Positions 1,615 to 37,520 of a DNA stretch of 39,496 nt are shown here, piece by piece. The notes below the pieces were generated by a model, which did no database searches, was not told the DNA's origin, and was given only the letters and a program-made list of their open reading frames with translations. The translations under genes and the position numbers were made by a program. Source of the stretch: Escherichia phage ZH4. The DNA is taken from sequence record OM355495.1. One strand, given 5' to 3'. Each line of letters starts with the position of its first letter. Position 1 is the first letter of the stretch.

Positions 1615-4600
1615 CCTTGATGTGGATACCTTGCTCCTCAAACGTTCCCAGTAGCAACTTCTGGGTAATCGGGTCGTTCGGAACCAGTTCACGGAACGTA
1701 TTATACATCCCGGTCATGTAGTCACGCTCGTTGACACGAGTATCGGACTTGAGGTAGCCAGCCAAGTTGTAAGCCGAAGCGCCAACGTTAGCAGCATATC
1801 CGAAAGCTGGAACCTGCTCCAAGAAGTTACCAACAATATTCATCACAGGGTCACTTGTAGCCGCACCATACGCGATGGCACGTTCAGGCTTCTCTGTAGG
1901 CGAACGAGGTAGGATAGACGAACGGAGCAGCTTAGTGTCCTCGTACCCAGCGATACCACCCAGAATGTTAGCTACCCCAAGTGGTCCACCGAGATGTGAA
2001 CTACGTGATAGAGCCGCATATCCAATCATCGTCGGGTCCAGAGCTTGCTTGAGGTAGTCACGGTCTCGACCATCCTGCATAGCGTAGGCCTTGACATGCG
2101 CCTGAGCCATGTAGTAGATGCCAGCAAGACCCATAGAGATCACAGTTGACAGAGCAGCGTCCATCGCTCGGTTGTTCTTCGTGGCGTTATAGAAGGTTCG
2201 CATGGTACGTCCATTGATAGACTTGATGACGAAGTTCTTAAACTGGAGGACAGTCTTAGCGAGAGGACCGTAAGCCTTGGCGTCCATGTTTGACAGCTTA
2301 TGAGGCCGGAGTAACGTTTCGTCAGCGATGGTGTCACCCATACGCCACAAGTCCATAGCCCTTGGGTCCTGACTGAACGCCTTCTTATCCTTGATCGTGT
2401 ACTTCCCGTCTGGACCACGCGTCACTGACTCACGGATTAGGGACTTAATACCCTTCCACTGCTCGTCAGAGATACCAGCGGTCTTCAGCCAGCGGTCATC
2501 GAACTTACGCTTACTGCCAGTCAGACTATGCTCCACGATGTCAGACAGGAAGCCTTGACGCCCAGCATCTAACAGGTAGTTTGTCGTACCGTTGAGGACT
2601 TTAGTGAACGGAGAGCGTACTGCAAGTTCACCAGTGTAATACTTGGCAGAGCCTAAAGCCGTAGCCGTAGGTTTACTCAGGGAGCTGTAAGCTCGGAGGC
2701 GGTCTATAACATCCTGTTTAGACGGACGGATTGAGTCATCCAGTTCCTTACCGAAGATAACATTGTGCAGGTCCTTAATCTCTGAGGCCCCGACCTTCTT
2801 GTTACGGAAGGCTAGGTCACGGAAAATCGGGACTCCATGTAGCAGTGCACGAACGTTACCACGAGCCAGCATACCACCAATCTCCGTTAAGTTCTGAACA
2901 CCCATGTAGGCATTCTTAGCGAAGAACGATAGGTCTGTCATTGTGCGCATAACTGTAGCGAAGGCTGCATCGTCAGCACCATCACGTCGAGCACGACCAG
3001 TGAGAATTTTCAAGGTGTCACGTAAGGTAGATACCTCACCTTTCAACTTGCCGTCATCACCAGCCTTGTTCATCATGGTCTCAACCAAATCCTTCATGTC
3101 CTTCGTTGTCTTGCCTGTACCAGCCATGATAGCAATGTCACCATTAACTCGACGGTTGTAGGCCGGGACAATCTTGTCCATGTCCCACTCACGTAGACTA
3201 TTTACGCTGAAAGCCTTACCATTAGGCAGGATTATTTCCATGTCGTTATCGAACAGGTTGCGAGCCTCAAGGAAGTTATTGTTCTCCAGACCGACCAGAC
3301 CGTTGATGTTTTCTTCCATTACGGATGAACGCTCAAACTGCTCTGTATGGGAGATACCATAAGCCTTATCATTAGCATACTTCTCTACCATATCCATAGT
3401 CACCTCTGGTGCTGCTTGAGATGCGTTACCAGATGTAGTTTCACCAGCAGTAGGGGCCTGATCATCTACAGCAGTCTTCTGCCCTTTGGCAGCTGCCGCA
3501 GCCGCTTCAGCTTCAGTTGTTGCTTTGGTGATTCTGTCTCGGACCTTATCAGCCTGTCCTTTCATGTAGTCGAGACGCTCGGTGTTAATACGGACGTGAG
3601 ACTTCTGGGTCTCAATCATCTGCTTCCGACTCTCAATCTTAACAGGAATGGTCTTGCTCTTAGGCTTAGCAGCTAGCTTTTCTTCCAACTCCTTCAGCTT
3701 AGCTTCATGAGAAGCCAGTCGGTCCTTGGAGTTCTGGAGTTTCTTTTCACGGTCTGCAACTCGCTTCTCAGCGTTGGTAAGTACGTCTTTGAGCTCAGCT
3801 ACCTTATCAATTGCCTGTGTAGCAGCATCGTCCAGTTTCATCTGGTCACGGGCTGTGTTTACAGAAGAACGAGGATTTGGTGCAGTACCCACAGTCTTAC
3901 CTGCTGCTGGTTGAGATGACCGTAACTGCTCTGCTAACATCTCGTCCACTCGCGCCTTGACTTCAGGTCTTGACGCATAGCTTGTCAGCCATGACTTCTT
4001 GATTGCCTCCTGTAATGCCTCTGGGCTTCCAAGCTCCTTGATATAAAGCTGCTTCATCTGAGAACTATAGACTACAGGAACGTAGGTCCCCTTGAATCTA
4101 CTACCCGGAAAGATAGACTGAGCGTCTGTACGGCCAAACATCGCTGGGTTCTCCATCATCTCGCGCTTTGCATCAAACTGGTTCTTCAGCAGGTCATAGA
4201 CTTTCAGTTCCCCCGGAGTAAGTTCAGTCTTCAGGTTTCCGCTACCATCTTCAATCGCCAAAGCTACGCGCTTATAAACATCCTCACGCAGAGCTGAGTT
4301 ATCTCGCCAGAATGCTGTCTGGAAGTATGGGTCCTTGAGCGCCTCAGTAACCGCATCGTCGATGTCGTTGTAGAACCGATGGTCCACAGCACGAAGTCTC
4401 TCGAATACGTCTGACGCAGTGGTCCCGATTTTACCTGAGGCCCCTGACTGCATACCAGTCGGTGAACGCACTAAGTCAGCAGCGACTCCACGAATCTCAG
4501 GGTTCTCAGACCGAAGCAGCTTCAGGCCAATCTCAGTCAGGCCGCCAAGGTTAACACCAGCAGCGGCACGTTCAGGCTCAATCACTTCGTCAAAGACCTG

Positions 4601-14347: not shown

Positions 14348-14370
14348 TCTCCCTATAGTGATAGTTTAGT
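14348..14370 (-). promoter_or_regulatory. Phage RNAP promoter (phi10-like), minus sense CTAAACTATCACTATAGGGAGA, +1 near 14353
   Basis: Perfect consensus copy upstream of the major capsid gene. Confidence 0.85.
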
Positions 14371-24099: not shown

Positions 24100-24122
24100 A
24101 ATCCCTAAGGTGATAGTTTAGG
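24100..24122 (-). promoter_or_regulatory. Variant phage RNAP promoter upstream of gene 4 (minus sense CTAAACTATCACCTTAGGGAT)
   Basis: Matches the consensus except -3/-2 (CT instead of TA); located between the 71-aa ORF stop and the gene 4 start. Probably weaker. Confidence 0.55.
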
Positions 24123-24357: not shown

Positions 24358-24816
24358 TTAACCACGGTCGGAAGTGATCAGTTCATTGGTAGACAGCCAG
24401 CGTTGCAAGTCGAAACTTGGACACGCCTTTGGCGCTACGTCATGGTGCGCTTTGATTTCTGCCTGAGGGTACAGGACCTTCAGATCAGCCAGCTTGTTGC
24501 GCAGGGAGTTCATCTGGGCTGGAGTGAAGTTAGCTTCAAACTGACCCTTAGCGTTGATTCCACCTACAAGGCAGACGCCTACGGACCGGGAGTTCCAGTC
24601 CTTAACGTGTGACCCTACGACATTGACCGGGCGACCTTCTTCCACAGTGCCATCACGCTTGATGATAAAGTGGTAGCCAATTGCCAGCCAGCCCTGCTGC
24701 TTATGCCACATCTCAATGGTCTCACGACCAATGTCCATAGTCGGCGGGGTCGCTGAACAGTGGACGAAGATTGCGTCTGTTGACTTGCGTGGCATGAATT
24801 GTACTTTACTTCCCAT
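24358..24816 (-). CDS. N-acetylmuramoyl-L-alanine amidase / T7 lysozyme (gp3.5 homolog), about 152 aa from ATG at 24816
   Basis: STDAIFVHCSAT, WHKQQGWL.IGYHFIIKRDGTVEEGR, VGSH.K, GVCLVGGI, FTPAQM.SLR, HH.VAPKACPSFDL.RW all conserved with T7 gp3.5; RBS GGTGG before MGSKVQF. Confidence 0.95.
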   Translation of the reverse strand: MGSKVQFMPRKSTDAIFVHCSATPPTMDIGRETIEMWHKQQGWLAIGYHFIIKRDGTVEEGRPVNVVGSHVKDWNSRSVGVCLVGGINAKGQFEANFTPAQMNSLRNKLADLKVLYPQAEIKAHHDVAPKACPSFDLQRWLSTNELITSDRG

Positions 24817-24818
24817 TA

Positions 24819-25191
24819 TTATTTCCACCTCTTGTGGTTCCTGATTCGACTTATGGTTGTCTCACTTACTGAGTATTTTTCAGCCATAAACTTAAGGGTC
24901 TCGCTTGAGGTGCGAATATCCTTAACGTCATCTTCAGTTAGTTTTGAATTAAATGTCCTGCGTACTGAGCAGTCCATCATGTTTTCTGCCTGAGTCCCCC
25001 AACTCAAGGTGCTCAATGTTTACGCATGCACGGTTATCACACTTGTGTCTTACGACAAGACCTCCCGGTATAGCACCATTGGTCTCTATCCAAGCGGCTC
25101 TATGAGCACCCATAGATTGGCCACGGAATTTACGTCTACCATAGCCATCCTTATTGCGACTCTTAGCCCACTCGATGCAGTCACTTTCCAT
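24819..25191 (-). pseudogene. HNH homing endonuclease disrupted by +1 frameshift in a C5 (minus G5) homopolymer at 24996..25000
   Basis: Track ORF 24949..25200 carries the HNH motif (VVRHKCDNRACVNIEHLELG) and track ORF 24819..25016 carries the C-terminal segment (KLTEDDVKDIR...TISRIRNHKRWK). Removing one G from GGGGG restores ...HLELGTQAENMMD..., collinear with the intact paralog at 5980..6429. Confidence 0.75.
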
Positions 25192-26811: not shown

Positions 26812-26834
26812 CTGTCCTACAGTGATAGTTTAGG
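26812..26834 (-). promoter_or_regulatory. Variant phage RNAP promoter (phi2.5-like), minus sense CTAAACTATCACTGTAGGACA
   Basis: Consensus with one change at -2 (G for A); overlaps the gp2 stop, upstream of SSB. Confidence 0.65.
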
Positions 26835-26988
26835 TCTCAGGACGGATACGTCCGACCACAAACCCAGCGTCCTCATACTCTTGGGACTTCAGGGTAGCCT
26901 CTTCAAGAGACTTTGCGTACACCGGAACCTCGAAGGACTGAACGCGACCCTCAAGCTCAACGATGTATTTCTTCTCAACCTCAGTCAT
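26830..26988 (-). CDS. Host RNA polymerase inhibitor (T7 gp2 homolog), 52 aa
   Basis: Own translation [52 protein letters not shown]; [14 protein letters not shown] matches T7 gp2 SFEVPIYAETLDEA; RBS GGAG. Below the track 60-aa cutoff. Confidence 0.75.
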
Positions 26989-27075
26989 AAACCGCGCTCC
27001 TTCCATAAGTTGTAGAGCTGAAGGTAATCTACGTTACCTGTCTCTTCAAATTTACGCTCGCACCATTCACTCGGT

Positions 27076-27249
27076 TTAAGCATCGTCATATTCAATCACC
27101 TCGTTACGTGAAAGATATACTTCTTCGTCATGCTTGTTCATGATCTTATAGAACTTACCGTCCCTTGTTCGCTCTGCAAAGAATATGTCATGGCGTTTAA
27201 CTAGTGCCATCATATCATCTTCACCCACATACTCGACCTTAATAATCAT
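27076..27249 (-). CDS. gp1.8-like small protein, 57 aa from ATG at 27249
   Basis: RBS AAGGA precedes MIIKVEYVGEDD...; directly follows gene 1.7 as in T7. Positional. Confidence 0.5.
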   Translation of the reverse strand: MIIKVEYVGEDDMMALVKRHDIFFAERTRDGKFYKIMNKHDEEVYLSRNEVIEYDDA

Positions 27250-27781
27250 AGCACTTGTCCTTATGTTTCTCATACAGTTCACCGTAGAACCCAGCTTTCG
27301 CCAGGTCCTTCTCCATAGTTGCCAGCTCTGACTTCTTACCCGCTCGTAGTCGATACTTCAGGACGTTACCCATGCAGAAACCACGGAACTCGCTGACAGT
27401 CATGGACCGGGCGATAATCTCAATGGATTCCACACCGTCAAAGACCTGATAATGGGACGGCTTGCGGACAGCGTCGATTGACTCAGTGGAAGGTTGGTCA
27501 TCTGTAGGAGTTACCTCCAGTTTATTCAAGTGAGGTTTACGAGGGTCCATCGCTCGGATTTCACCTAATGTAATGTGAGAATCGTATGTCATAGGGCACT
27601 CAGCGCAAGTCACTCCAGCGCAGTACAGACCGCAGCCATCCAAATAATCTGGGCGACCTGCGTTATTGTCTATCAACTTGATGATAATCTCTTGTTTACG
27701 TTCGGTCATATTATTAACTCCTTTGTTACAGGTGTGTGGGTAACGGCCGTCTTTCTCTAAGCAAGCTATGCAACCAGACAT
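27239..27781 (-). CDS. Nucleotide kinase (T7 gp1.7 homolog), 180 aa
   Basis: GCIACLEKDGRYPHTCNKG, MTERKQEIIIKLIDNN.GRPD, ITLGEIRAMDPRKPHLNK.EVTPTDDQPS, RSMTV..F.G.C.GN.LKYRLRAGKKSELA..EKDLAKA.FY.EL.EKHKDKCY nearly identical to T7 gp1.7; RBS AGGAGG. Confidence 0.95.
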   Translation of the reverse strand: MSGCIACLEKDGRYPHTCNKGVNNMTERKQEIIIKLIDNNAGRPDYLDGCGLYCAGVTCAECPMTYDSHITLGEIRAMDPRKPHLNKLEVTPTDDQPSTESIDAVRKPSHYQVFDGVESIEIIARSMTVSEFRGFCMGNVLKYRLRAGKKSELATMEKDLAKAGFYGELYEKHKDKCYDY

Positions 27782-28119: not shown

Positions 28120-28157
28120 CAAAGCAAAGAAACCCAGCAGTCCGAAGACCACTGGGT
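28120..28157 (-). terminator. TE-like early intrinsic terminator after the ligase gene (RNA: CCCAGUGGUC-UUCG-GACUGCUGGG then UUUCUUUGCUUU)
   Basis: 10-bp stem (8 Watson-Crick plus 2 G-U) with UUCG tetraloop and a U-rich tail, 10 nt after the ligase stop; T7 has the host-RNAP terminator TE at the same place. Confidence 0.75.
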
Positions 28158-28167
28158 TGACGTTTAG

Positions 28168-29250: not shown

Positions 29251-29513
29251 TATGATTTGCTCCATGTGTCGAGTTGGTCAGCGAGACCGTTTAGGTAGTC
29301 TGTTGCAGTGTTGTACAGTACGTCTTCATCGTGGTGTGCGAATGTCTCAAGCGTGAAGATGTTACCAGCTCGGTCCTCGACCCTGAGTCTCATACACTCT
29401 TGGCGTGACACATGGTCTTGAAACTCCTGAGATATGACAGCGAAGTCTAACTGATAGAGCCTGTTACACGCTGCTTTGAAAGCGTTTAGGTTGCCACTAT
29501 AAAGTCGGCCCAT
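29250..29513 (-). CDS. gp1.2 homolog (inhibitor of host dGTP triphosphohydrolase), 87 aa
   Basis: MGRLYSGNLNAFKAACNRLYQLD...RLRVEDRAGN...HHDEDVLYN..TD.LN matches T7 gp1.2 (MGRLYSGNLAAFKAATNKLFQLD...). Confidence 0.9.
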   Translation of the reverse strand: MGRLYSGNLNAFKAACNRLYQLDFAVISQEFQDHVSRQECMRLRVEDRAGNIFTLETFAHHDEDVLYNTATDYLNGLADQLDTWSKS

Positions 29514-29517
29514 AGCG

Positions 29518-29697
29518 TTATGCTCCTACGAAGTATTTCTCTTGGTTGACCATAGAGTCTTTACCTTCAGCATTACGGAAAGCACCCTTGACACCACCGC
29601 CACGCTTGGTCTTGTTCAGCTTGCGGCCCTTCGGAATGTAATCTTCAGTCTGCTGACGTTCACGGATTCGCTCGAAGTTGATAGTGTTCTGATACAT
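29518..29697 (-). CDS. gp1.1 homolog, 59 aa
   Basis: Own translation MYQNTINFERIRERQQTEDYIPKGRKLNKTKRGGGVKGAFRNAEGKDSMVNQEKYFVGA; KGRKLNKTKR matches T7 gp1.1. Below the track 60-aa cutoff. Confidence 0.7.
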   Translation of the reverse strand: MYQNTINFERIRERQQTEDYIPKGRKLNKTKRGGGVKGAFRNAEGKDSMVNQEKYFVGA

Positions 29698-29733
29698 GTG
29701 GTTTAATCTCCAGTAGTTTACGTTATGTTAGGG

Positions 29734-29776
29734 TTAATCATGAAGGCCACGACTTTGAGTCATGACCTTGAGTCTA
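29734..29776 (-). repeat. Conserved 43-bp element copy 2 (putative RNase III site, R1.1 position) between the phi1.1 promoter and gene 1.1
   Basis: Plus sense TTAATCATGAAGGCCAC...ATGACCTTGAGTCTAA; lies in the 5' leader of the phi1.1 transcript, matching the T7 R1.1 location. Confidence 0.55.
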
Positions 29777-29797
29777 ATCCTATAGTGATAGTTTAGG
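29775..29797 (-). promoter_or_regulatory. Phage RNAP promoter (phi1.1-like), minus sense CTAAACTATCACTATAGGATTAG, +1 near 29780
   Basis: Consensus copy upstream of genes 1.1-1.3. Confidence 0.8.
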
Positions 29798-29872
29798 GTT
29801 AACCTCTTCTGCGTTGGATTAAAGTGAATACTGCTAGTGCTCCCAGCCAAAAGGCCAGTAACTGTAGGTCTG

Positions 29873-30073
29873 TCATTTGGTTGCCGCCTCTTTAAGGGCT
29901 TGCTCGTGCGTCTGCTCCACCTGCTTAACCAGCCACTTGAACGGGACGTTAAGCTGCTTTGACATCTCGGTAGGGATGACAGTGGTCTTCACCAGACCCT
30001 TGCCGTTGTGTTCTGTTACGGTCACGATTTGAGTACCACCCTTAACGCCAGTCTGCTTGTGTGCAAATTCCAT
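29873..30073 (-). CDS. Hypothetical protein, 66 aa, between RNA polymerase and the phi1.1 promoter
   Basis: Track ORF with ATG and RBS AGGAGAG; overlaps the RNAP stop by 13 nt; lysine/threonine-rich; no T7 counterpart recognised. Confidence 0.55.
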   Translation of the reverse strand: MEFAHKQTGVKGGTQIVTVTEHNGKGLVKTTVIPTEMSKQLNVPFKWLVKQVEQTHEQALKEAATK

Positions 30074-30085
30074 AACTCTCTCCTG

Positions 30086-32767
30086 TTAAGCGAATGCAAA
30101 GTCTGAAGACAAGATGTCTTCGATATTCAGTTTACCTTTCTTCGGAAGCTCAGGCAACTTGTCGCGCTGGCTCTCATGAAGCTGGTATTCGAACTGCTCG
30201 TAGAAGTCAAGCAGCACATCGTTGTCGCGGTAGGTCTCAACCATTGTCTCACGGACTCCACGGAACAGATACTCAGCGTCAGCCGGGATGGTCCCGAAGC
30301 TATCGTGAATCACTGCGAATGACATCACACCATACTTGCGGTGCGTGTGGACTACAGTCTTGCGGAGGTGGCTACCATCTTGTGAGTGGACGAAGTTCGG
30401 GCTGATGCCTGACTCCTGCTTGTGCTTGTCCAGCTCTTTCTTCGTGCCTTTGTTGACTGTAGGCTGAAGGTTGAACGACCCTAAGAACATCAGGTTCAGA
30501 CGAGTGGTATCCTTCTTGCGGTATTCCTGCCAGACCGGGAAACCATCAGGTGTGACCCAGTGTACCGGAAGGCAAGGCTTCAGGATTTCTCCAGTCTTCT
30601 TGTCTTTCACTTCAGCAGCCAGCAGCTTGGCAGCACCTTGAAGCCACTTCATCGCGTCAACCGCAGCAACTACGGTCACACTCACAGCTTCCCAAATCAT
30701 CTTAGCCATGAAGCGAGACGCTTGGCTTGGCTCGGTGAACATAGCGCCAGACCCTGAGTCAATCGCTGGCATCACGATGTCTTCGTACACTTGGTCTGCG
30801 AAGCCATACTCTTTCGACCCGTAGGCCAGAGTCATTACTGAACGCTTAGTGACCTTGCGTGACATACCGTAGGTCAGCCACTGACGGGCCAGCTCTCGTG
30901 TCCCCAGCTTGAGACGTTCGGTAATCTCACCAGTTTTCTTGTCCTCGTGAGTTACCATCTCGTTGTCCGTACCGTTAACCAGCATTACTTTAAGCTCCTC
31001 CTCGATGCGATCAGACACGATGCGGTAGATGTCTTGTACCTTCCCGGAAGGCGTCAGGTTTACTGCATGTCCACCGATGTGGTCACGAAGCATCGCGCTG
31101 AAGTGCTGAATCCCAGAGCATGACCCATCGAACGCTATCGGTAGCGAACAAGAGTAAGACAATCCGTGGTGCATTACTCCAGCATACTCGAAGCAGAACG
31201 CAAGGAAGCAGAAAGGAGAGTCTAGCTTGCCCCACCACTCAATGTTATCCATCGGTGCCTTAGCGGTAGCCATGATGTTGTCGTGATTGTCTTCCACCCA
31301 CTTGATGCGCTCCTCGAAGGTGACTTTATCGACGCCAGCACAGTTTGCACCATGGACCTTCAGCCATTTGAAACCATCAGCGCCAATAGGCTTGCCGACT
31401 GCAAGAGTCAGGAGACCCTTCTGCATGTCGTTACCCTGAGGGTTGAACATCGGGACAGCGTAGACACGACCCCGCCAGTCCATGTTGTACGGGAACCAGA
31501 TGGCCTTGAACTGAGAGAACTTGTTCGCTTGGTTAACGATAAAGCTCAGTGACAATCTGCGTGACTGTCTGGCCTTCTCGCGGCGATAGATACCAGCAGC
31601 AGCCTTCTTCCATGCCTTGAGTTCCTCCTCTGTCTCACCCGCATAGTCCTCAGGCTTCAGTGGTTCCATCTGAGGGATGTCGTCAATAGGCGTGTTGTTC
31701 AGCTTCTCGACCATGTTCACCACGTCCAGAACCTTCTTGTTCACTTTCCAAGGTGTATTCTGAATGATGTTCACAGCGTCATAGACTTCAGGCATGTACA
31801 CGTCTTCGTAACGTGCTACCGCAGACTTAGACCCTAAGCGAATCAATGGTAACGGTCTGCGACCTTTGGCCCAGTACCCACCGCCTACGACACCAGTCCA
31901 CGGCTTAGGTGGAACGACGCAAGGTTGATAGACTGGTGCGATACCCGCAAGGCTAAATCCACGTTGTGCCATCTTCTTTACCCAGAAGTCTGACAGGTGG
32001 ACCATCTCAACGTCAGCCGCTGCATTGCCAGCACCATAACGCTTAAGCTCGACCAGTTGAGTAGACTGGATGACAATCTCAAGCATCTTGATGCCAACGT
32101 GTACCGCCTCGGTCGGACTCCAAGTACCCCACGCATCTTCCAGTTGACCTTGCTCCAGCATGGAGGTCTCAACCGCTTGCATGTAGGCTTTCTTATAGGA
32201 TACCCCGGCTCGCTTGTTCAGGTTCTCAGCTATCGCCTTCTTGAAGTGCTCCTGCTCCTTGTCCCGAATGCGACCGAAGCGGATTTCATCTTCGAGTGTA
32301 CGGCCTATCGCTGAGGCCATCGGTGTAATCGGTATCCCTTCAGGCTTTACCAGCTTGGAGAGTATGACCTTCAGTATGATGACCGCAGCAGACTCGCAAG
32401 AGATACGCAGAGAGCGGTCCTTGACGGCCTTCCCTTCAGTGCTCAACATGGTGAACGCTACGCTAGGACGAGAGGTTGACAGCTTCCCGTCTGGGCCTTC
32501 GTGCCACTCCTTGACGGCTTGCGCAATCTTAGGGACCAGAGTCTGCATCAAAGGCTTGGCTACCTGATTGTCTGCCAGTTCTCCGCGCTCAGTCTGTCGC
32601 TCAAGGTTCTTAATGAAACGTCGCTCGCCTTCAGTGTATGCCTCATGCTCGAGCTGAAGTTGTTTTACTGCAAGGTCTTGCCCGTAGTGGTCGGCCAGCA
32701 GGTTAAACGGCTCAATAGCGTTCGACACATCAGAGAAGTCGTGTTTATCGATAGAGATGACGCTCAT
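30086..32767 (-). CDS. Single-subunit DNA-dependent RNA polymerase (T7 gp1 homolog), 893 aa
   Basis: Collinear with T7 RNAP over the whole length (DFSD...PFN.LADHYG, FQPCVVPPKPWTG..GGGYWA.GRRPL, WFPYNMDWRGRVYAV.MFNPQGNDM.KGLLTLA.GKPIG, DGSCSGIQHFSAMLRD, SVMTLAYGSKE.GF, HDSFGTIPADA, C-terminal FAFA). Specificity-loop region reads QPTVNKGTKK where T7 has QPTINTNKDS. Confidence 0.98.
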   Translation of the reverse strand: MSVISIDKHDFSDVSNAIEPFNLLADHYGQDLAVKQLQLEHEAYTEGERRFIKNLERQTERGELADNQVAKPLMQTLVPKIAQAVKEWHEGPDGKLSTSRPSVAFTMLSTEGKAVKDRSLRISCESAAVIILKVILSKLVKPEGIPITPMASAIGRTLEDEIRFGRIRDKEQEHFKKAIAENLNKRAGVSYKKAYMQAVETSMLEQGQLEDAWGTWSPTEAVHVGIKMLEIVIQSTQLVELKRYGAGNAAADVEMVHLSDFWVKKMAQRGFSLAGIAPVYQPCVVPPKPWTGVVGGGYWAKGRRPLPLIRLGSKSAVARYEDVYMPEVYDAVNIIQNTPWKVNKKVLDVVNMVEKLNNTPIDDIPQMEPLKPEDYAGETEEELKAWKKAAAGIYRREKARQSRRLSLSFIVNQANKFSQFKAIWFPYNMDWRGRVYAVPMFNPQGNDMQKGLLTLAVGKPIGADGFKWLKVHGANCAGVDKVTFEERIKWVEDNHDNIMATAKAPMDNIEWWGKLDSPFCFLAFCFEYAGVMHHGLSYSCSLPIAFDGSCSGIQHFSAMLRDHIGGHAVNLTPSGKVQDIYRIVSDRIEEELKVMLVNGTDNEMVTHEDKKTGEITERLKLGTRELARQWLTYGMSRKVTKRSVMTLAYGSKEYGFADQVYEDIVMPAIDSGSGAMFTEPSQASRFMAKMIWEAVSVTVVAAVDAMKWLQGAAKLLAAEVKDKKTGEILKPCLPVHWVTPDGFPVWQEYRKKDTTRLNLMFLGSFNLQPTVNKGTKKELDKHKQESGISPNFVHSQDGSHLRKTVVHTHRKYGVMSFAVIHDSFGTIPADAEYLFRGVRETMVETYRDNDVLLDFYEQFEYQLHESQRDKLPELPKKGKLNIEDILSSDFAFA

Positions 32768-32836
32768 ACTTAAAGTCCTTGTTATTAGTCTTTCACTTAA
32801 AGTCTCTTTGGTCTTTCACTTGGAGTCTTAGACCTT

Positions 32837-32859
32837 GAGTCCTATAGTGATAGTTAAGT
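32837..32859 (-). promoter_or_regulatory. Phage RNAP promoter directly upstream of the RNAP gene (minus sense CTTAACTATCACTATAGGACTC, +1 near 32842)
   Basis: Near-perfect consensus copy about 75 nt upstream of the gene 1 ATG; the leader contains tandem AAGUGAAAGAC repeats and an AAGGA RBS. Confidence 0.7.
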
Positions 32860-32864
32860 CAGAA

Positions 32865-33125
32865 TTACTTGAATATCAGCGGGTTAGCGTGAAGATGACT
32901 GAAGTCACCGTGAGTCGTGTGCTTGATTGTTGACCGTTGGTCTATCGCCTTCCAGCCTGAGACCAGAAGTTTACCATCGTCTGTGCTTGGTCGTCCACCA
33001 TACACCAGACACATCAGCTCGGACTTATGGCCCTCTGCTATCATGCGGCGCTGTAGGAACATATCGCGCTGTACTTGCTCCATGCGGCTACGGCTTGATG
33101 ATTTATTAGTGTATACGGTTTTCAT
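32865..33125 (-). CDS. Hypothetical early protein, 86 aa
   Basis: Track ORF in the early region between the Ocr and RNAP genes; no recognisable motifs; T7 has genes 0.4-0.7 here. Confidence 0.45.
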   Translation of the reverse strand: MKTVYTNKSSSRSRMEQVQRDMFLQRRMIAEGHKSELMCLVYGGRPSTDDGKLLVSGWKAIDQRSTIKHTTHGDFSHLHANPLIFK

Positions 33126-33328
33126 TACAGTTTACTCCCAAGTGTTGCTATATCCCAGACGTTCGCTAAGTTGCGCATGAATCGTCCATTAGGTTGACGC
33201 ACAGTCCAGCGACCCAGACGTGCATAGTTGAATTTATAGACTTTGCGTGCCTTGTTGATGTCTCTCACCAGCACGTAGGCGATAAGTCCATAGCCTATAA
33301 CTATCAATACTGCGATACCCATAGTCAT
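33125..33328 (-). CDS. Small membrane protein, 67 aa (early region)
   Basis: Track ORF; N-terminal hydrophobic helix GIAVLIVIGYGLIAYVLV followed by a basic segment; ATGA overlap with the preceding small ORF. Confidence 0.5.
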   Translation of the reverse strand: MTMGIAVLIVIGYGLIAYVLVRDINKARKVYKFNYARLGRWTVRQPNGRFMRNLANVWDIATLGSKL

Positions 33329-33429
33329 ATACCCCAGAACAGTTGAGTCAGGACCGGAAGTTTACCGACCAGCGTGAATACTCCCCACGCTACGAATCCA
33401 GATGCAGTCCAAATGATTGCAGTGCTCAT
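33325..33429 (-). CDS. Small hydrophobic peptide, 34 aa (early region)
   Basis: Own translation MSTAIIWTASGFVAWGVFTLVGKLPVLTQLFWGI with RBS AGGAG 6 nt upstream; translationally coupled to the next ORF. Below track cutoff. Confidence 0.35.
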   Translation of the reverse strand: MSTAIIWTASGFVAWGVFTLVGKLPVLTQLFWGI

Positions 33430-33496
33430 AGTTAGCTCCTATCAATTTAAGTGGTAATCTTTGAGGCCACCTATCATTTAGATGACCTCTCGTCTA

Positions 33497-33646
33497 TCAC
33501 TCAGTGTGCGAACTGTCGTACATGCTATTGCGGACCTCATAGACCACTTTCAAGAGACGCATAGCCGCATCGTGGTTTAACTGCCCAGTCTTGACCATAA
33601 TCCGGGCGTAGGTGACGTGGTGCTGGCAGAGACCATAAGTTACCAT
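33497..33646 (-). CDS. Small ORF, 49 aa, translationally coupled to Ocr (TAATG overlap)
   Basis: Own translation [49 protein letters not shown]; no RBS evaluated; low confidence. Confidence 0.3.
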   Translation of the reverse strand: MVTYGLCQHHVTYARIMVKTGQLNHDAAMRLLKVVYEVRNSMYDSSHTE

Positions 33647-34152
33647 TACTCGCAGTCCTCGTCAGCCGCAGGGTCGAACACTACGTTATCGTCGATGTCT
33701 TCGACTTTCAGGTGGCGACCTATCACATAGTGATCCTTGGCACATGCAGTAGCGACCTCAAGAGACACAGCTTGCTCAATGAGTACACCTGTCTTAGCGT
33801 CGACTACCCAATACTCATCCTCCTCGTCGCTCTCTTCAGCCTCAAACCATACCACATCCGAGCTATTAGACACGTCGTTATAAAGCGCCTCATAGATGCG
33901 AGCTTGCAGTATACGCGTTACGTCCTTGGTCTCAGGCATCAGCCCAGAGTCCTCAAACTCATGGTCTATACCATCAGCAGCCATCACCGTAAAAATCTCG
34001 TGGTAATAGTGCGGAACCTGACCGTCTACGACTTCATGCAGCGCATCGTGGTAGTCATCGCTTTCAGCTATTTCGTCGTACTGAATACGCTCGTTAAATG
34101 CTTTAACGGTTGCGGCCAGCAGCTCATAGTATGCGTTAGCGTTACGTTCCAT
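33646..34152 (-). CDS. ocr: Ocr-like DNA-mimic anti-restriction protein (T7 gp0.3 homolog) with a C-terminal extension, 168 aa
   Basis: [66 protein letters not shown] matches T7 Ocr ([66 protein letters not shown]). First gene after the host promoters. About 50 extra C-terminal residues beyond the acidic tail. Confidence 0.9.
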
Positions 34153-34345
34153 AGTTATATCCTCTCAAAGTTGTTTGTGTATGTTAGTGACTATCAGTCA
34201 GGGCCTTCAGATGTAGACTCAAAGACCCTGTAGTTAGTCGCTATCGGCGCACATTAAGAGTTTATCCAGATTATTAAAGAGCATTCGCGTTGGCTGTCGT
34301 CGCCGTGCTATCCCGTTTCAGTGTTGGGACTCACCGTTGTTTCGA

Positions 34346-34382
34346 TGTGGTACAGCTTACAGCTTTTAAAGGAGGCTGTCAA
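34346..34382 (-). promoter_or_regulatory. Host sigma70-type early promoter (T7 A3-like): -35 TTGACA, 17-nt spacer, -10 TAAGCT, then GTACCACATCGAAACAACGGTGAGTC
   Basis: Minus sense TTGACAgcctcctttaaaagctgTAAGCTgtaccacatcgaaacaacggtgagtccc; the downstream segment closely resembles the T7 A3 initial transcribed region (GTACCACATGAAACGACAGTGAGTCA). Confidence 0.65.
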
Positions 34383-34494
34383 CCTGTTATTCTTTTATGC
34401 GATGAGTGACCGAATTCGACTCATGGCTAGTGCCTTATCCTTGGCTGGTCTCGGGCAGGTTTCTCGGTTCCTATCCCTACGCCATCTTGCTACG

Positions 34495-34530
34495 TGGTAC
34501 ATATTACTTTAAGTCGGTACATCTTGTCAA
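34495..34530 (-). promoter_or_regulatory. Host sigma70-type early promoter: -35 TTGACA, 18-nt spacer, -10 TAATAT, followed by GTACCAC
   Basis: Minus sense TTGACAagatgtaccgacttaaagTAATATgtaccacg, about 350 nt upstream of the Ocr gene; near-consensus hexamers. Confidence 0.7.
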
Positions 34531-34779
34531 CTACTTTCTGTCATCTGCCTGTTTTTCGTATGACTTATCAGGCTGTCTACTTGACCGGGATGACCCGGCG
34601 TCTTCACTATCCGGTTGTTGCCGTGTCGTGTTGACGGAAGCTATTAAGCCACAATCTAGGACTGTAGTCAATAGTTAATTTGAAATAATATTGATTAAGC
34701 TATCGTCGGCCCATGGTGACTAAGATGATATAGTCTTTGACTAACATGTCTTTGACCTTAAGTCTATATCTTTATGTCT

Positions 34780-35270
34780 ATTAACTGTAGGTCTCTGACT
34801 GTAGGTAATGGCTTTACCGACGGTCTGTGACTGTAGGTTGTTGGACTGTAGGTTGTTGGACTTATGGTTATACAGATAAAGACTCGGAGACAGACCAATA
34901 GTCCCAACCTATCGTCTCCACCTCCACCGATAGTCATGACCTATCGTTGACAAAAGGTATTGACAGCCGGTCCAACCTTATGATATACTGAAGGTAGGGC
35001 CACCCTTGGTCTGGACTGAAAGAGGGCCTGCGGGGGAGACTTGAGGTTCTTGAACTATGAGATGTGGTCTCAAACTTTTGGTCCAAAACTCATCGTCACT
35101 ACTGCAGTCCACAGCCACTGTAGGTCAAGGACCGTAGGTCAGGCGACACTAGGATAGACCAATAAGTAGGATGACCCTAAGTGAGCTTCTATTAAGGTGT
35201 TACCTAAAGTCCTTGACTACAGTAGCTAAGGTCAGTAGAGTAGCGTCAGCTATGAACTGACCTTAGGTCT
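34780..35270. repeat. Repeat-rich non-coding region containing the predicted physical genome ends and collapsed terminal repeat (ACCTACAG / GACCTTAGGTC-type short repeats)
   Basis: No credible ORFs. Multiple CTGTAGGT/CCGTAGGT copies and GACCTTAAGTC-like palindromes. Lies between gene 19.5 (right end) and the early promoters (left end), analogous to the T7 terminal-repeat-proximal CCTAAAG arrays. Confidence 0.5.
34947..34990 (+). promoter_or_regulatory. Sigma70-like promoter on the opposite (plus) strand: tandem TTGACA boxes, 18-nt spacer, -10 TATACT
   Basis: Plus sense cgTTGACAaaaggtatTGACAgccggtccaaccttatgaTATACTg, inside the terminal region and pointing away from the early genes. No downstream ORF. 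Confidence 0.4.
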
Positions 35271-35299
35271 TCCGCTCATGAATCGTTACCATGATTGCG

Positions 35300-35458
35300 T
35301 TAATTACACTGAGACACCAGAGAACATACGAGAGTCTCGACCCACCCGACCCACTGACTTCCAGCAGTAACGCCAGCAGTAAGTAGAACAGCAGCAAGAA
35401 ACCTGTATGTAGCTCGATTGGTCGCCAGAGCTTTAAGTACAGCTTTGGTCTTTGCCAT
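35300..35458 (-). CDS. gp19.5-like small protein, 52 aa
   Basis: Own translation MAKTKAVLKALATNRATYRFLAAVLLTAGVTAGSQWVGWVETLVCSLVSQCN; the TYRFL.. hydrophobic core resembles what I recall of T7 gp19.5; lies downstream of the right-end promoter as in T7. Below track cutoff. Confidence 0.45.
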   Translation of the reverse strand: MAKTKAVLKALATNRATYRFLAAVLLTAGVTAGSQWVGWVETLVCSLVSQCN

Positions 35459-35639
35459 ATGCTACATACCTCCTGTATCTATGGTCGGTGACTATCTGTA
35501 TTGGAGGGATTATGATTAATATCACCCTCCTTCCATCGGTGCAAGCCTTAGGTAAGAACTCGGAGTCTGCCTCCTAAGGTCTTGCATAAAGTCTGCATAT
35601 GTATATTCACTACAGTAATACTATAAGTAACCGGGGGGT

Positions 35640-35662
35640 CTTCCCTATAGTGATAGTTAAGT
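35640..35662 (-). promoter_or_regulatory. Phage RNAP promoter (phiOR-like) downstream of terminase, minus sense CTTAACTATCACTATAGGGAAGA, +1 near 35645
   Basis: Consensus copy about 95 nt after the large terminase stop, preceding the 19.5-like ORF and the genome end region. Confidence 0.8.
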
Positions 35663-35756
35663 CCAAACTCCTTGTAAAACAGTAGGTTAGACTGGTAGTA
35701 ACTATAGGTTACTAACCGCGTATTCATGCAGCTTTCACCCATAGTTATTCATTCAG

Positions 35757-37520
35757 CTAGTGGAACGTAACGTAGGACCCTAGTCCCAGCTCGTCGTCTG
35801 TATCGTGAGTTACCCTGACCCCATTGTCCCAGAACTCAGTGTGTATTGACTCGAAGCCTTTCCGTGGGTTCTCCATCTGTTCCTCAAGCCACTCCTCAGT
35901 GACTTCACGTTCTCCTTTGTTGGCATCCTTAGCCATGGACTCAACGAAGAACTGTACACCGATAGCCAGCGCATCAAGTCGGTCATCATGTGCCAAGGCT
36001 CCACGTTCACGAGATATACGTGTCATCTGGTAGAAGAGAGAGTAGATAGGGTTACGAACACCATCCTTATCAGCGGCTGACTGGTAGTCTTGGACGATAG
36101 CAGCAGCGTTAACGATAAGTCTGTGAGACCCCATGATAGGCTCCAGAACGTCACAGATGCGGAGTTCTTTCTGACCCTTACTCTTCACTTCAGTTACAGC
36201 AGCAGGATGGATACGGGCCGCTACAGGCTTGAATAACTCAAGGTACATACCATCACCGAAGTTACCCTCAATGACGTATTCGTTGACCTTCCACTTACGA
36301 CCAATCTTAGCCAAGGCTTCCAGCGTAGAGTCTTCATAACCACCACGCATGCCACCAACTTCCATAGCGAAGATGTAGCCGTTGAGTTGATACAGTACCG
36401 CATAACCAGTTTCATCCTTACCACGACCACTAGGGTCAATGACCAGAATCTTCTGGGTGTATGAGCTGAACGCAGAACCTACAGTCTGATACGTGTGGTA
36501 CGAGTCACCCATGAGTCCAACGTTAGGAACGTCCTCACGCTTGTTCTGAGGGTTCGGCAACCATTGGTAGACCATTGGACTGGACGCTGGGTCCAAGTCT
36601 GCTACGATAAGGTCACGGAGCTTCAGAGGGTACTTCTCTGCATCACTCAGGTTCGGGTTAAGCATGAACTGTAGAGCGAAGCCAGCTTTACCGTAAGATA
36701 ACTCACGTTCCTTAAGGTCCGTATCATCGAAGCGTACTTCATCAGTCGGACGCCAGTAGAAGGACTCAGGGTCCTCTTCCAGCTCTGCTTGAAGCATAGG
36801 AGCCAGACGGTCGCCGTAAGACTGCCAGTCCTTCCTGTCGCGTGGATAACGAGCCGGCCAGATAGTAGTGGTATACCCACGACCTTCAAGCTCACGATAC
36901 AGGGTCATCTCGTTCTGAGGAGTACCCAGATAGATTATTGTACCTCCAGGCTTAAGGATAGCGTCGAACTCTTTCACAAGCTCTGACAGACGGTCTCGCG
37001 CAGCCTGAGTAGCAGAGTTGTTAGGAACCTCCACGTCATCGGCAATCAGGATGTCAGCACGACTACCAGTCAACTGACCAGTGATACCAACGGACTTAAC
37101 AGAAGGTGAGTGGTCTGGCTTGGCTGGCCCAACGTCGAAGCTAATAACCGCATCTCGCTGTCCCTGCTTAGGTTTGAGTTCCTGAAGCTGAGGCATTAGG
37201 TCGATGATTCGCTTGATGAAGATGGAGTTAGCATCAGCTCGTTCCTTTGAGGCCGACACAATCATGAACTTCAAGTCTGGGTTGTTCCATAGTTTCCAGA
37301 CCACGAAGGCACACGTAATGAAGGACTTCCCGATACCACGGAACGCCTGTAGGATGAAACGCCTGTTGTCCCCAGCGGAGAGCTTACGAGCCATATCTAT
37401 CTGGCATCTAGTCGGGACTGGTAGTGACAGAGCTTTCCACAGGACGAACAGGAAGAACACGAAGTCTGCCTTCATACGGGCAGTCATTAGCGCCTGACGC
37501 GCCACTAAGTCTTTACTCAA
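35757..37520 (-). CDS. Terminase large subunit / DNA maturase B (T7 gp19 homolog), 587 aa
   Basis: Near-identical blocks with T7 gp19 ([167 protein letters not shown]). Confidence 0.98.

Follow-up and report, generated by a model that had tools for sequence, protein, structure and literature searches.

The intergenic gap ahead of gene 1 in Escherichia phage ZH4 probably contains a working promoter for the phage's own RNA polymerase (phi1), the first such promoter on the genome, with the consequence that polymerase synthesis would be primed by host transcription of gene 1 and would then reinforce itself. Membership of the site in the phage promoter family, its position, its conservation, and its co-variation with polymerase specificity are established by the analysis described here; positive feedback itself we infer from the sequences. 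The layout is already known, since it is annotated in the GenBank records of phages EcoDS1 and CR8. Judged from the genomes compared, a promoter before gene 1 is the standard arrangement in the genus Kayfunavirus, where it is universal, and it is also found in Caroctavirus, Jarilovirus, and one Ghunavirus. Two layouts can be recognized within the Studiervirinae, namely a left-end phiOL promoter (T7, T3, and K11) and a promoter directly before gene 1 (Kayfunavirus, Caroctavirus, Jarilovirus, and at least one Ghunavirus).

The phi1 site in the ZH4 genome

The window, that is, the whole stretch of 39,496 nucleotides analyzed (record OM355495.1), comprises an entire Kayfunavirus (K1F-like) genome in circularly permuted, reverse-oriented form. 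The minus strand carries all the long ORFs, which together make up the gene complement of a T7-like podovirus. When the window is aligned to the terminal repeat annotated in EcoDS1, the genome left end falls at ~35062 (minus strand) and the terminal repeat at ~35062..34880 (minus strand). The gene 1 product is a T7-type RNA polymerase that shares 99.4% identity with gp1 of Escherichia phage P762 and ~63% identity with T7 gp1. Window DNA around 32837-32859 has matches in 205 phage records, most of them from K1F-like (Kayfunavirus) phages of Escherichia and Salmonella.

The window contains 10 strong copies of a promoter motif with the consensus CTAAACTATCACTATAGGA and one weaker copy, every one of them on the minus strand and at positions corresponding to T7 promoters. 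Among them are copies that follow gene 1, the ligase gene, and the terminase gene, and others that precede the SSB gene and the scaffold and capsid genes. The initial annotation had reported a near-perfect copy of the phage promoter at 32837-32859, and this is borne out by scoring. The reverse complement of these 23 bp, ACTTAACTATCACTATAGGACTC, reaches 33.9 bits under a leave-one-out weight matrix, inside the span of 29-38 bits covered by the family. Outside the family the highest score on either strand is 13.5 bits (leaving out a weak 26-bit site near 24100-24122), a gap between phi1 and background of ~20 bits. The exact string TCACTATAGG occurs nine times in the window; when up to one mismatch is allowed, the two strands together give 11, against an expectation of 2.1 +/- 1.4, and for the promoter motif zero matches are expected in shuffled sequence.

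The site is located in the 97-nt gap between the stop codon of the gp0.38-like gene (32865), which lies 5 nt ahead of it, and the gene 1 ATG (32767), on the transcribed strand and directed into gene 1. The predicted +1 at 32842 gives a leader of 75 nt, in agreement with the distance of about 75 nt from the ATG originally proposed. A search of the transcribed (minus) strand over 29500-36000, which includes the paths from phi1 and from the early promoters to gene 1, found no terminator-like site. The initially transcribed sequence of phi1 is GGACUC and that of the capsid-gene promoter is GGGAGA. In T7, starts of the GGACUC kind rather than the GGGAGA kind go with the weaker class II promoters, which by analogy suggests that phi1 is a promoter of this weaker kind. 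The features discussed here and below are collected in Table 1.

Table 1. Features of the ZH4 window bearing on gene 1 transcription, in order along the transcribed strand from the phiOR-like promoter.
Feature	Position	Strand	Basis
phiOR-like phage promoter, past the terminase gene and before the genome end (~35062)	35640..35662	-	PWM
Candidate host sigma-70-type early promoter, TTGACT..., -10 poorly defined	34636..34671	-	similar to first EcoDS1 host promoter
Host sigma-70-type early promoter, TTGACA-18-TAATAT	34501..34530	-	syntenic with annotated EcoDS1 host RNA polymerase promoter
Candidate host sigma-70-type early promoter, TTGACA-17-TAAGCT	34354..34382	-	same relative position as third EcoDS1 host promoter
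Last early ORF, gp0.38-like, 86 aa	32865..33125	-	PHROG 7066; K1F and EcoDS1 annotation
Phage RNA polymerase promoter phi1 (-17 to +6), ACTTAACTATCACTATAGGACTC	32837..32859	-	leave-one-out PWM 33.9 bits; identical 23-mer annotated in EcoDS1
Predicted irregular hairpin, 58 nt, in read-through (host-made) RNA only; 5' arm is promoter core -8 to +5	32793..32850	-	MFE -16.4 kcal/mol
Predicted transcription start, +1 G (first G of GG)	32842	-	register with T7-type core CACTATA|GG
Gene 1 leader, 75 nt, 63% A+T, six GAC triplets	32768..32842	-	sequence
First AAGTGAAAGAC copy	32811..32821	-	exact match
Second AAGTGAAAGAC copy, part of the predicted hairpin 3' arm	32788..32798	-	exact match
Shine-Dalgarno AAGGA, 8 nt ahead of ATG	32776..32780	-	sequence; AAGGACTTTAAGTATG invariant in 12 of 12 aligned leaders
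Gene 1, single-subunit RNA polymerase, 893 aa	30086..32767	-	Pfam RNA_pol and RPOL_N; PHROG 414
Next phage promoter, phi1.1-like, then R1.1-type hairpin starting GACUCAAGGUC as the phi1 leader does	29775..29797	-	PWM
Early terminator candidate (TE-like), just past the ligase gene	28131..28158	-	12-bp stem and T-run; same position as T3 TE
gp2-like host RNA polymerase inhibitor	26830..27006	-	Pfam RNA_pol_inhib, 2.3e-20
gp3.5-like amidase (T7 lysozyme family)	24358..24828	-	Pfam Amidase_2, 7e-16

Conservation and match with polymerase specificity

The same promoter and leader precede gene 1 in K1F, and the EcoDS1 record annotates a promoter "phi" (EU734172, 2244-2266) that is the identical 23-mer, followed by an identical leader (95 nt for promoter and leader together) and lying 70 nt before gene 1 (2336); the window shows no difference of substance from EcoDS1 and represents another member of the same genus. 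The 95-nt promoter and leader segment is present in 218 GenBank phage records, in 109 of them at 99% identity or more, whereas in these phages identity over the 1 kb on either side reaches only ~90%. A site equivalent to phi1 was found in all 21 IMG/VR contigs that encode a close relative of the polymerase, with the +1 at -75, -76, or -81 relative to the ATG. In 17 K1F-type genomes the mean pairwise identity from -100 to -1 is 0.95-1.00, as high as in the gene 1 coding sequence, and it drops to 0.45-0.7 farther upstream in the early region. The features conserved in all 12 aligned leaders are the promoter, the initial twelve bases of the transcript, and AAGGACTTTAAGTATG around the ribosome-binding site. 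Between Ocr and gene 1 (32865-34152, minus strand) the window carries no gp0.7-type protein kinase gene, and vB_EclP_26, CR8, and Jarilo each have one; the content of the early region is therefore mosaic, while the promoter and leader are constant.

The strongest evidence for phi1 function is the co-variation of the site with the specificity of the polymerase encoded next to it. The specificity region (-8 to -12) is ACTAT in the window, ACCCT in Ro103C3lw, and GGTAC in Citrobacter phage CR8. All promoters of the window are AACTATCACTATAGG, and the window and vB_EclP_26 have AACTATCAC in the specificity region of every promoter, together with a polymerase loop bearing N and N at the equivalents of T7 N748 and R756. 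In Ro103C3lw, whose polymerase is 89% identical, 11 of 11 promoters, the gene 1 site included, are AACCCTCACTATAGG with the specificity region AACCCTCAC, and the loop has D and R at these two positions, as in T3. CR8 (Caroctavirus, polymerase 79% identical) has yet another loop sequence, and its promoters, the gene 1 site among them, are GAAGGTACACTATAGG with the specificity region GAAGGTACAC. A promoter of the phage's own type also lies just before gene 1 in Pectobacterium phage Jarilo and in a gh-1-like Pseudomonas phage (Ghunavirus). Because the recognition bases change in step with the polymerase, selection is acting on phi1 as a promoter. The promoter-to-gene 1 comparison leaves out Vibrio phage JSF24, and in about ten loci with left-end tandem repeats promoters were located by a core-pattern scan; in an Erwinia locus, where only 117 nt are available upstream of gene 1, no promoter was found.

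Two sublineages carry a gene 1 promoter that departs from their own consensus, with the core CACTAAAGG (-2A) in vB_EclP_26 and the contigs L018-L023 and the core CACTTTAGG (-3T) in ASO2B. In all of these genomes the off-consensus base at -2 or -3 is confined to the gene 1 promoter, ~75-81 nt before gene 1, and the other promoters keep TATA. A strong promoter would thus not be required at gene 1, and any feedback may be modest.

The proposed circuit and the T7 layout

The suggestion that the polymerase could transcribe its own gene holds up well. It is very likely that it does so, given that the site has the right orientation and a terminator-free path into gene 1, is conserved, and tracks the polymerase specificity loop. 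In the proposed sequence of events, gene 1 would first be read by the host RNA polymerase from three sigma-70-type promoters ~1.6-1.9 kb upstream, which are syntenic with the three host promoters annotated in EcoDS1. Once present, the phage polymerase would initiate at 32842 and produce a gene 1 mRNA with a 75-nt leader that continues into genes 1.1-1.3, and polymerase synthesis would from then on be self-reinforcing and independent of the host enzyme. By analogy with T7, the gp2 homolog is expected to shut off the host polymerase, leaving phi1 as the only source of gene 1 mRNA, and the gp3.5-like amidase, a candidate negative regulator of the phage polymerase, may later damp the loop. The start at 32842, the size of the feedback, and the shut-off steps assigned to gp2 and the amidase are those that we infer for this circuit.

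Individual parts of this scheme have precedents in other systems. The K1F polymerase and its cognate promoter function as an orthogonal pair in vivo (PMC12218169; PMC11880802), and the engineered T7 autogene, which has the same layout of a polymerase gene behind its own promoter, is autocatalytic, albeit artificial (PMC1500874). In the Pseudomonas phage LUZ100, ONT-cappable-seq identified a phage-specific promoter, also named phi1, directly upstream of the polymerase gene, and its authors proposed that priming by the host polymerase leads to a positive feedback loop; unlike the phage studied here, LUZ100 is a distant relative with temperate features and its proposed loop is gated by a MarR-like repressor (PMC10134795). 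In Vibrio phage phiA318, the phage promoter phi-A8 lies immediately upstream of the kinase and polymerase genes and was interpreted as autoregulatory (PMC4099482), although the site is only a prediction and belongs to an SP6/K1E-like phage. Nothing relevant turned up when the literature was searched for transcript mapping in K1F. CR8 has a predicted promoter (HG818824, 3356-3378) that resembles phi1 in being cognate, in lying between gp0.38 and gene 1, and in preceding a leader with ACTTTAAGT motifs, and differs from the window in its specificity region, its polymerase loop, and its 87-nt leader.

The contrast with T7 drawn in the initial annotation requires amendment. It is correct that T7, T3, and K11 have no promoter immediately before gene 1, but the first T7 phage promoter does not lie downstream of that gene, as had been stated: phiOL is annotated upstream of the early genes, and in the T7, T3, and K11 records alike it is found to the left of the host early promoters. 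Like phi1, phiOL is upstream of gene 1 and could in principle allow the phage polymerase to read its own gene; unlike phi1, it is 2-3.4 kb upstream and left of the host early promoters. In 58 T7-, T3-, Berlin-, and K11-like loci, gene 1 is typically separated by 2-3.4 kb from the nearest phage promoter upstream of it; no such promoter lies within 600 nt, the closest being at -638. The place directly before gene 1 is occupied in T7 and T3 by C, a minor host promoter, to which the T3 record adds the RNase III site R1. In the window no PWM hit above 8 bits marks a phiOL-type promoter between the left end (~35062) and 32861, and Ro103C3lw, with annotated ends, is likewise devoid of a phiOL-type left-end promoter. 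The K1F-like phages are in this respect the reverse of T7, being without phiOL and having a promoter immediately before gene 1. Some T3- and K11-like IMG/VR loci (L073, L066, L077, and L092) possess an extra cognate promoter 640-1400 nt ahead of gene 1, within the early region, so that the K1F group is not alone in having promoters upstream of this gene.

The absence of any phage promoter from the left end to phi1, where T7, T3, and K11 have phiOL, also lends itself to a different reading, namely that phi1 works but was selected as a replacement for phiOL, serving as the first entry point of the phage polymerase to boost genes 1.1-1.3 or to prime DNA replication as at the T7 and T3 origins, rather than for feedback on gene 1. 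An origin role would be in keeping with a leader that is 63% A+T and rich in GAC (GTC on the other strand), a content of six GAC triplets being reached in only 7 of 20,000 shuffles. GTC is the core of T7 primase recognition sites. In the T3 record, moreover, the primary origin adjoins a promoter flanking gene 1. Transcripts from phi1 must nevertheless cross gene 1 first, so that feedback would follow whatever the selected role, and the promoter is held 75-102 nt before gene 1 in four genera despite their differing upstream gene content, a constancy of spacing that points to a link with gene 1 itself. On balance, selection purely for a phiOL-like role is considered unlikely, and self-reinforcing transcription of gene 1 is preferred as the function of phi1.

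A part for phi1 in transcription-driven genome entry is also unlikely, since phi1.1 (29775-29797), although further along, would be equally inside the cell by the time that polymerase exists.

If self-reinforcing transcription from phi1 operates as proposed, the K1F-like phages depart from the textbook T7 rule of a polymerase gene transcribed purely by the host. Their supply of polymerase would probably be self-driven after host transcription has been shut off, with consequences for kinetic models of infection and for how K1F-based expression systems are designed, and a natural autogene would result if gene 1 were cloned together with the sequence that natively precedes it. The practical value is modest; phages of the K1F type serve in therapy and in engineering.

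Leader, predicted hairpin, and other elements

The leader had been described as carrying tandem repeats. Two exact copies of the 11-mer AAGTGAAAGAC are indeed present, but they are not tandem: they are 23 nt apart with 12 nt between them rather than head-to-tail, and Tandem Repeats Finder reported nothing for them. When the leader was shuffled by mononucleotides, 24 of 20,000 trials gave an exact repeat of at least 11 nt. In Ro103C3lw and the contig L025 the first copy is diverged (AGTTAAAGAC), one exact copy is left in L018-L023 and vB_EclP_26, and the repeats are conserved only within the K1F-type lineage. A near-palindromic element, ACTTTAAGT, recurs abutting the ATG in gene 1 leaders of different lineages (window 32768-32842, minus strand; CR8, 3373-3459), and bears an apparent resemblance to part of the T7 gene 10 leader enhancer sequence.

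The phi1 leader starts with GGACUCAAGGUC, resembling the start of the clear R1.1-type hairpin that follows the next promoter of the window. This start is shared with the T7-type combination of a class II promoter and an RNase III hairpin (phi1.1/R1.1), and in the window phi1.1 is followed by GACUCAAGGUCAUGACUCAAAGUCGUGGCCUU, which forms a clear hairpin. Phi1 and phi1.1 look like paralogs. The two differ in that the hairpin following phi1 in the phage-made transcript is short and interrupted (5+3 bp).

In read-through RNA made by the host polymerase, GAGACUUUAAGUGA, a segment containing the second copy of the repeat, can pair with promoter positions -8 to +5. Equivalent irregular hairpins of 60-66 nt are predicted for every lineage tested, with energies of -15 to -18 kcal/mol. 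The off-consensus bases of the two sublineages raise predicted pairing with the 3' arm, by -3.3 kcal/mol for -2A and by -0.5 to -1.1 kcal/mol for -3T. These predictions raise the possibility that the promoter is dual-coded, acting as phi1 in DNA and as the 5' arm of an R1-like processing hairpin in RNA, with the second AAGTGAAAGAC in the 3' arm. In that case, gene 1 mRNA made by the host polymerase would differ from that made by the phage enzyme in its 5' structure, its processing, or its translation, and -2A and -3T would be compensatory, keeping the hairpin at a cost in promoter strength. This proposal is put forward tentatively and is rather unlikely to hold. The evidence for the hairpin is suggestive but weak: as a single sequence the leader folds no differently from shuffled ones (z-scores of -0.60 and, for the phage-made transcript, +0.95), and pairing of the promoter core with downstream sequence has p ~0.06 against shuffles. 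RNAalifold applied to 12 leaders did not recover the hairpin and gave no compensatory pairs, returning only a weak 9-bp helix between +3..+12 and the ribosome-binding region without covariation, and an Rfam scan of 32000-36000 gave no match. A possible overlap of the promoter with an RNA processing hairpin is nonetheless the sole part of the arrangement that might be new.

Taken to its limit, the same pairing could mean that an RNA hairpin in host-made early transcripts, equivalent to the RNase III site R1, which in T7 and T3 lies shortly ahead of gene 1, is the main selected feature and that the promoter likeness of its 5' arm is secondary. A stem-loop R1 is annotated 20 nt before gene 1 in T3, every lineage is predicted to form the hairpin whose 5' arm consists of promoter positions -8 to +5, both off-consensus changes increase pairing with the 3' arm, and the whole leader is conserved as strongly as coding sequence. 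This reading is improbable, in that the fold energies described above do not differ from those of shuffled sequence, the searches for conserved structure did not return the hairpin, and the bases from -9 to -12 fall outside the predicted hairpin yet switch with the polymerase, which a hairpin cannot explain; their lineage-specific identity indicates that they are kept for polymerase recognition. That the site might be a chance match or a decaying relic without function is scarcely credible and already contradicted by the comparative data, considering that zero matches are expected in shuffles, that ~20 bits separate it from background, and that it is found in every relative with its type switching along with the polymerase.

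Several further elements of the genome may be recorded alongside phi1 as a promoter. The class II region includes a 180-aa ORF (27239-27781, minus strand) that matches PHROG 2585, a family of phage nucleotide kinases. Short tandem repeats of the ACCTACAGTC type lie at 34795-34875 (minus strand), a little inside the left end; similar arrays provide the commonest k-mers in many relatives, and CR8 annotates comparable repeats. The weak eleventh promoter-like site (24100-24122, minus strand; CTAAACTATCACCTTAGGGA, 26 bits) precedes the primase/helicase gene, and because vB_EclP_26 shares its off-consensus CACCTTAGG at the corresponding position, its weakness as a promoter is probably deliberate. 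Finally, an inverted near-copy of the promoter core (CTGTAGTGA) is located ~35 nt downstream of the phiOR-like promoter (both within 35590-35662, minus strand), the predicted duplex between the two having an energy of -12.4 kcal/mol that is matched by ~1% of shuffles, and a weaker version of this arrangement accompanies the phi10-like capsid-gene promoter at 14348-14370.
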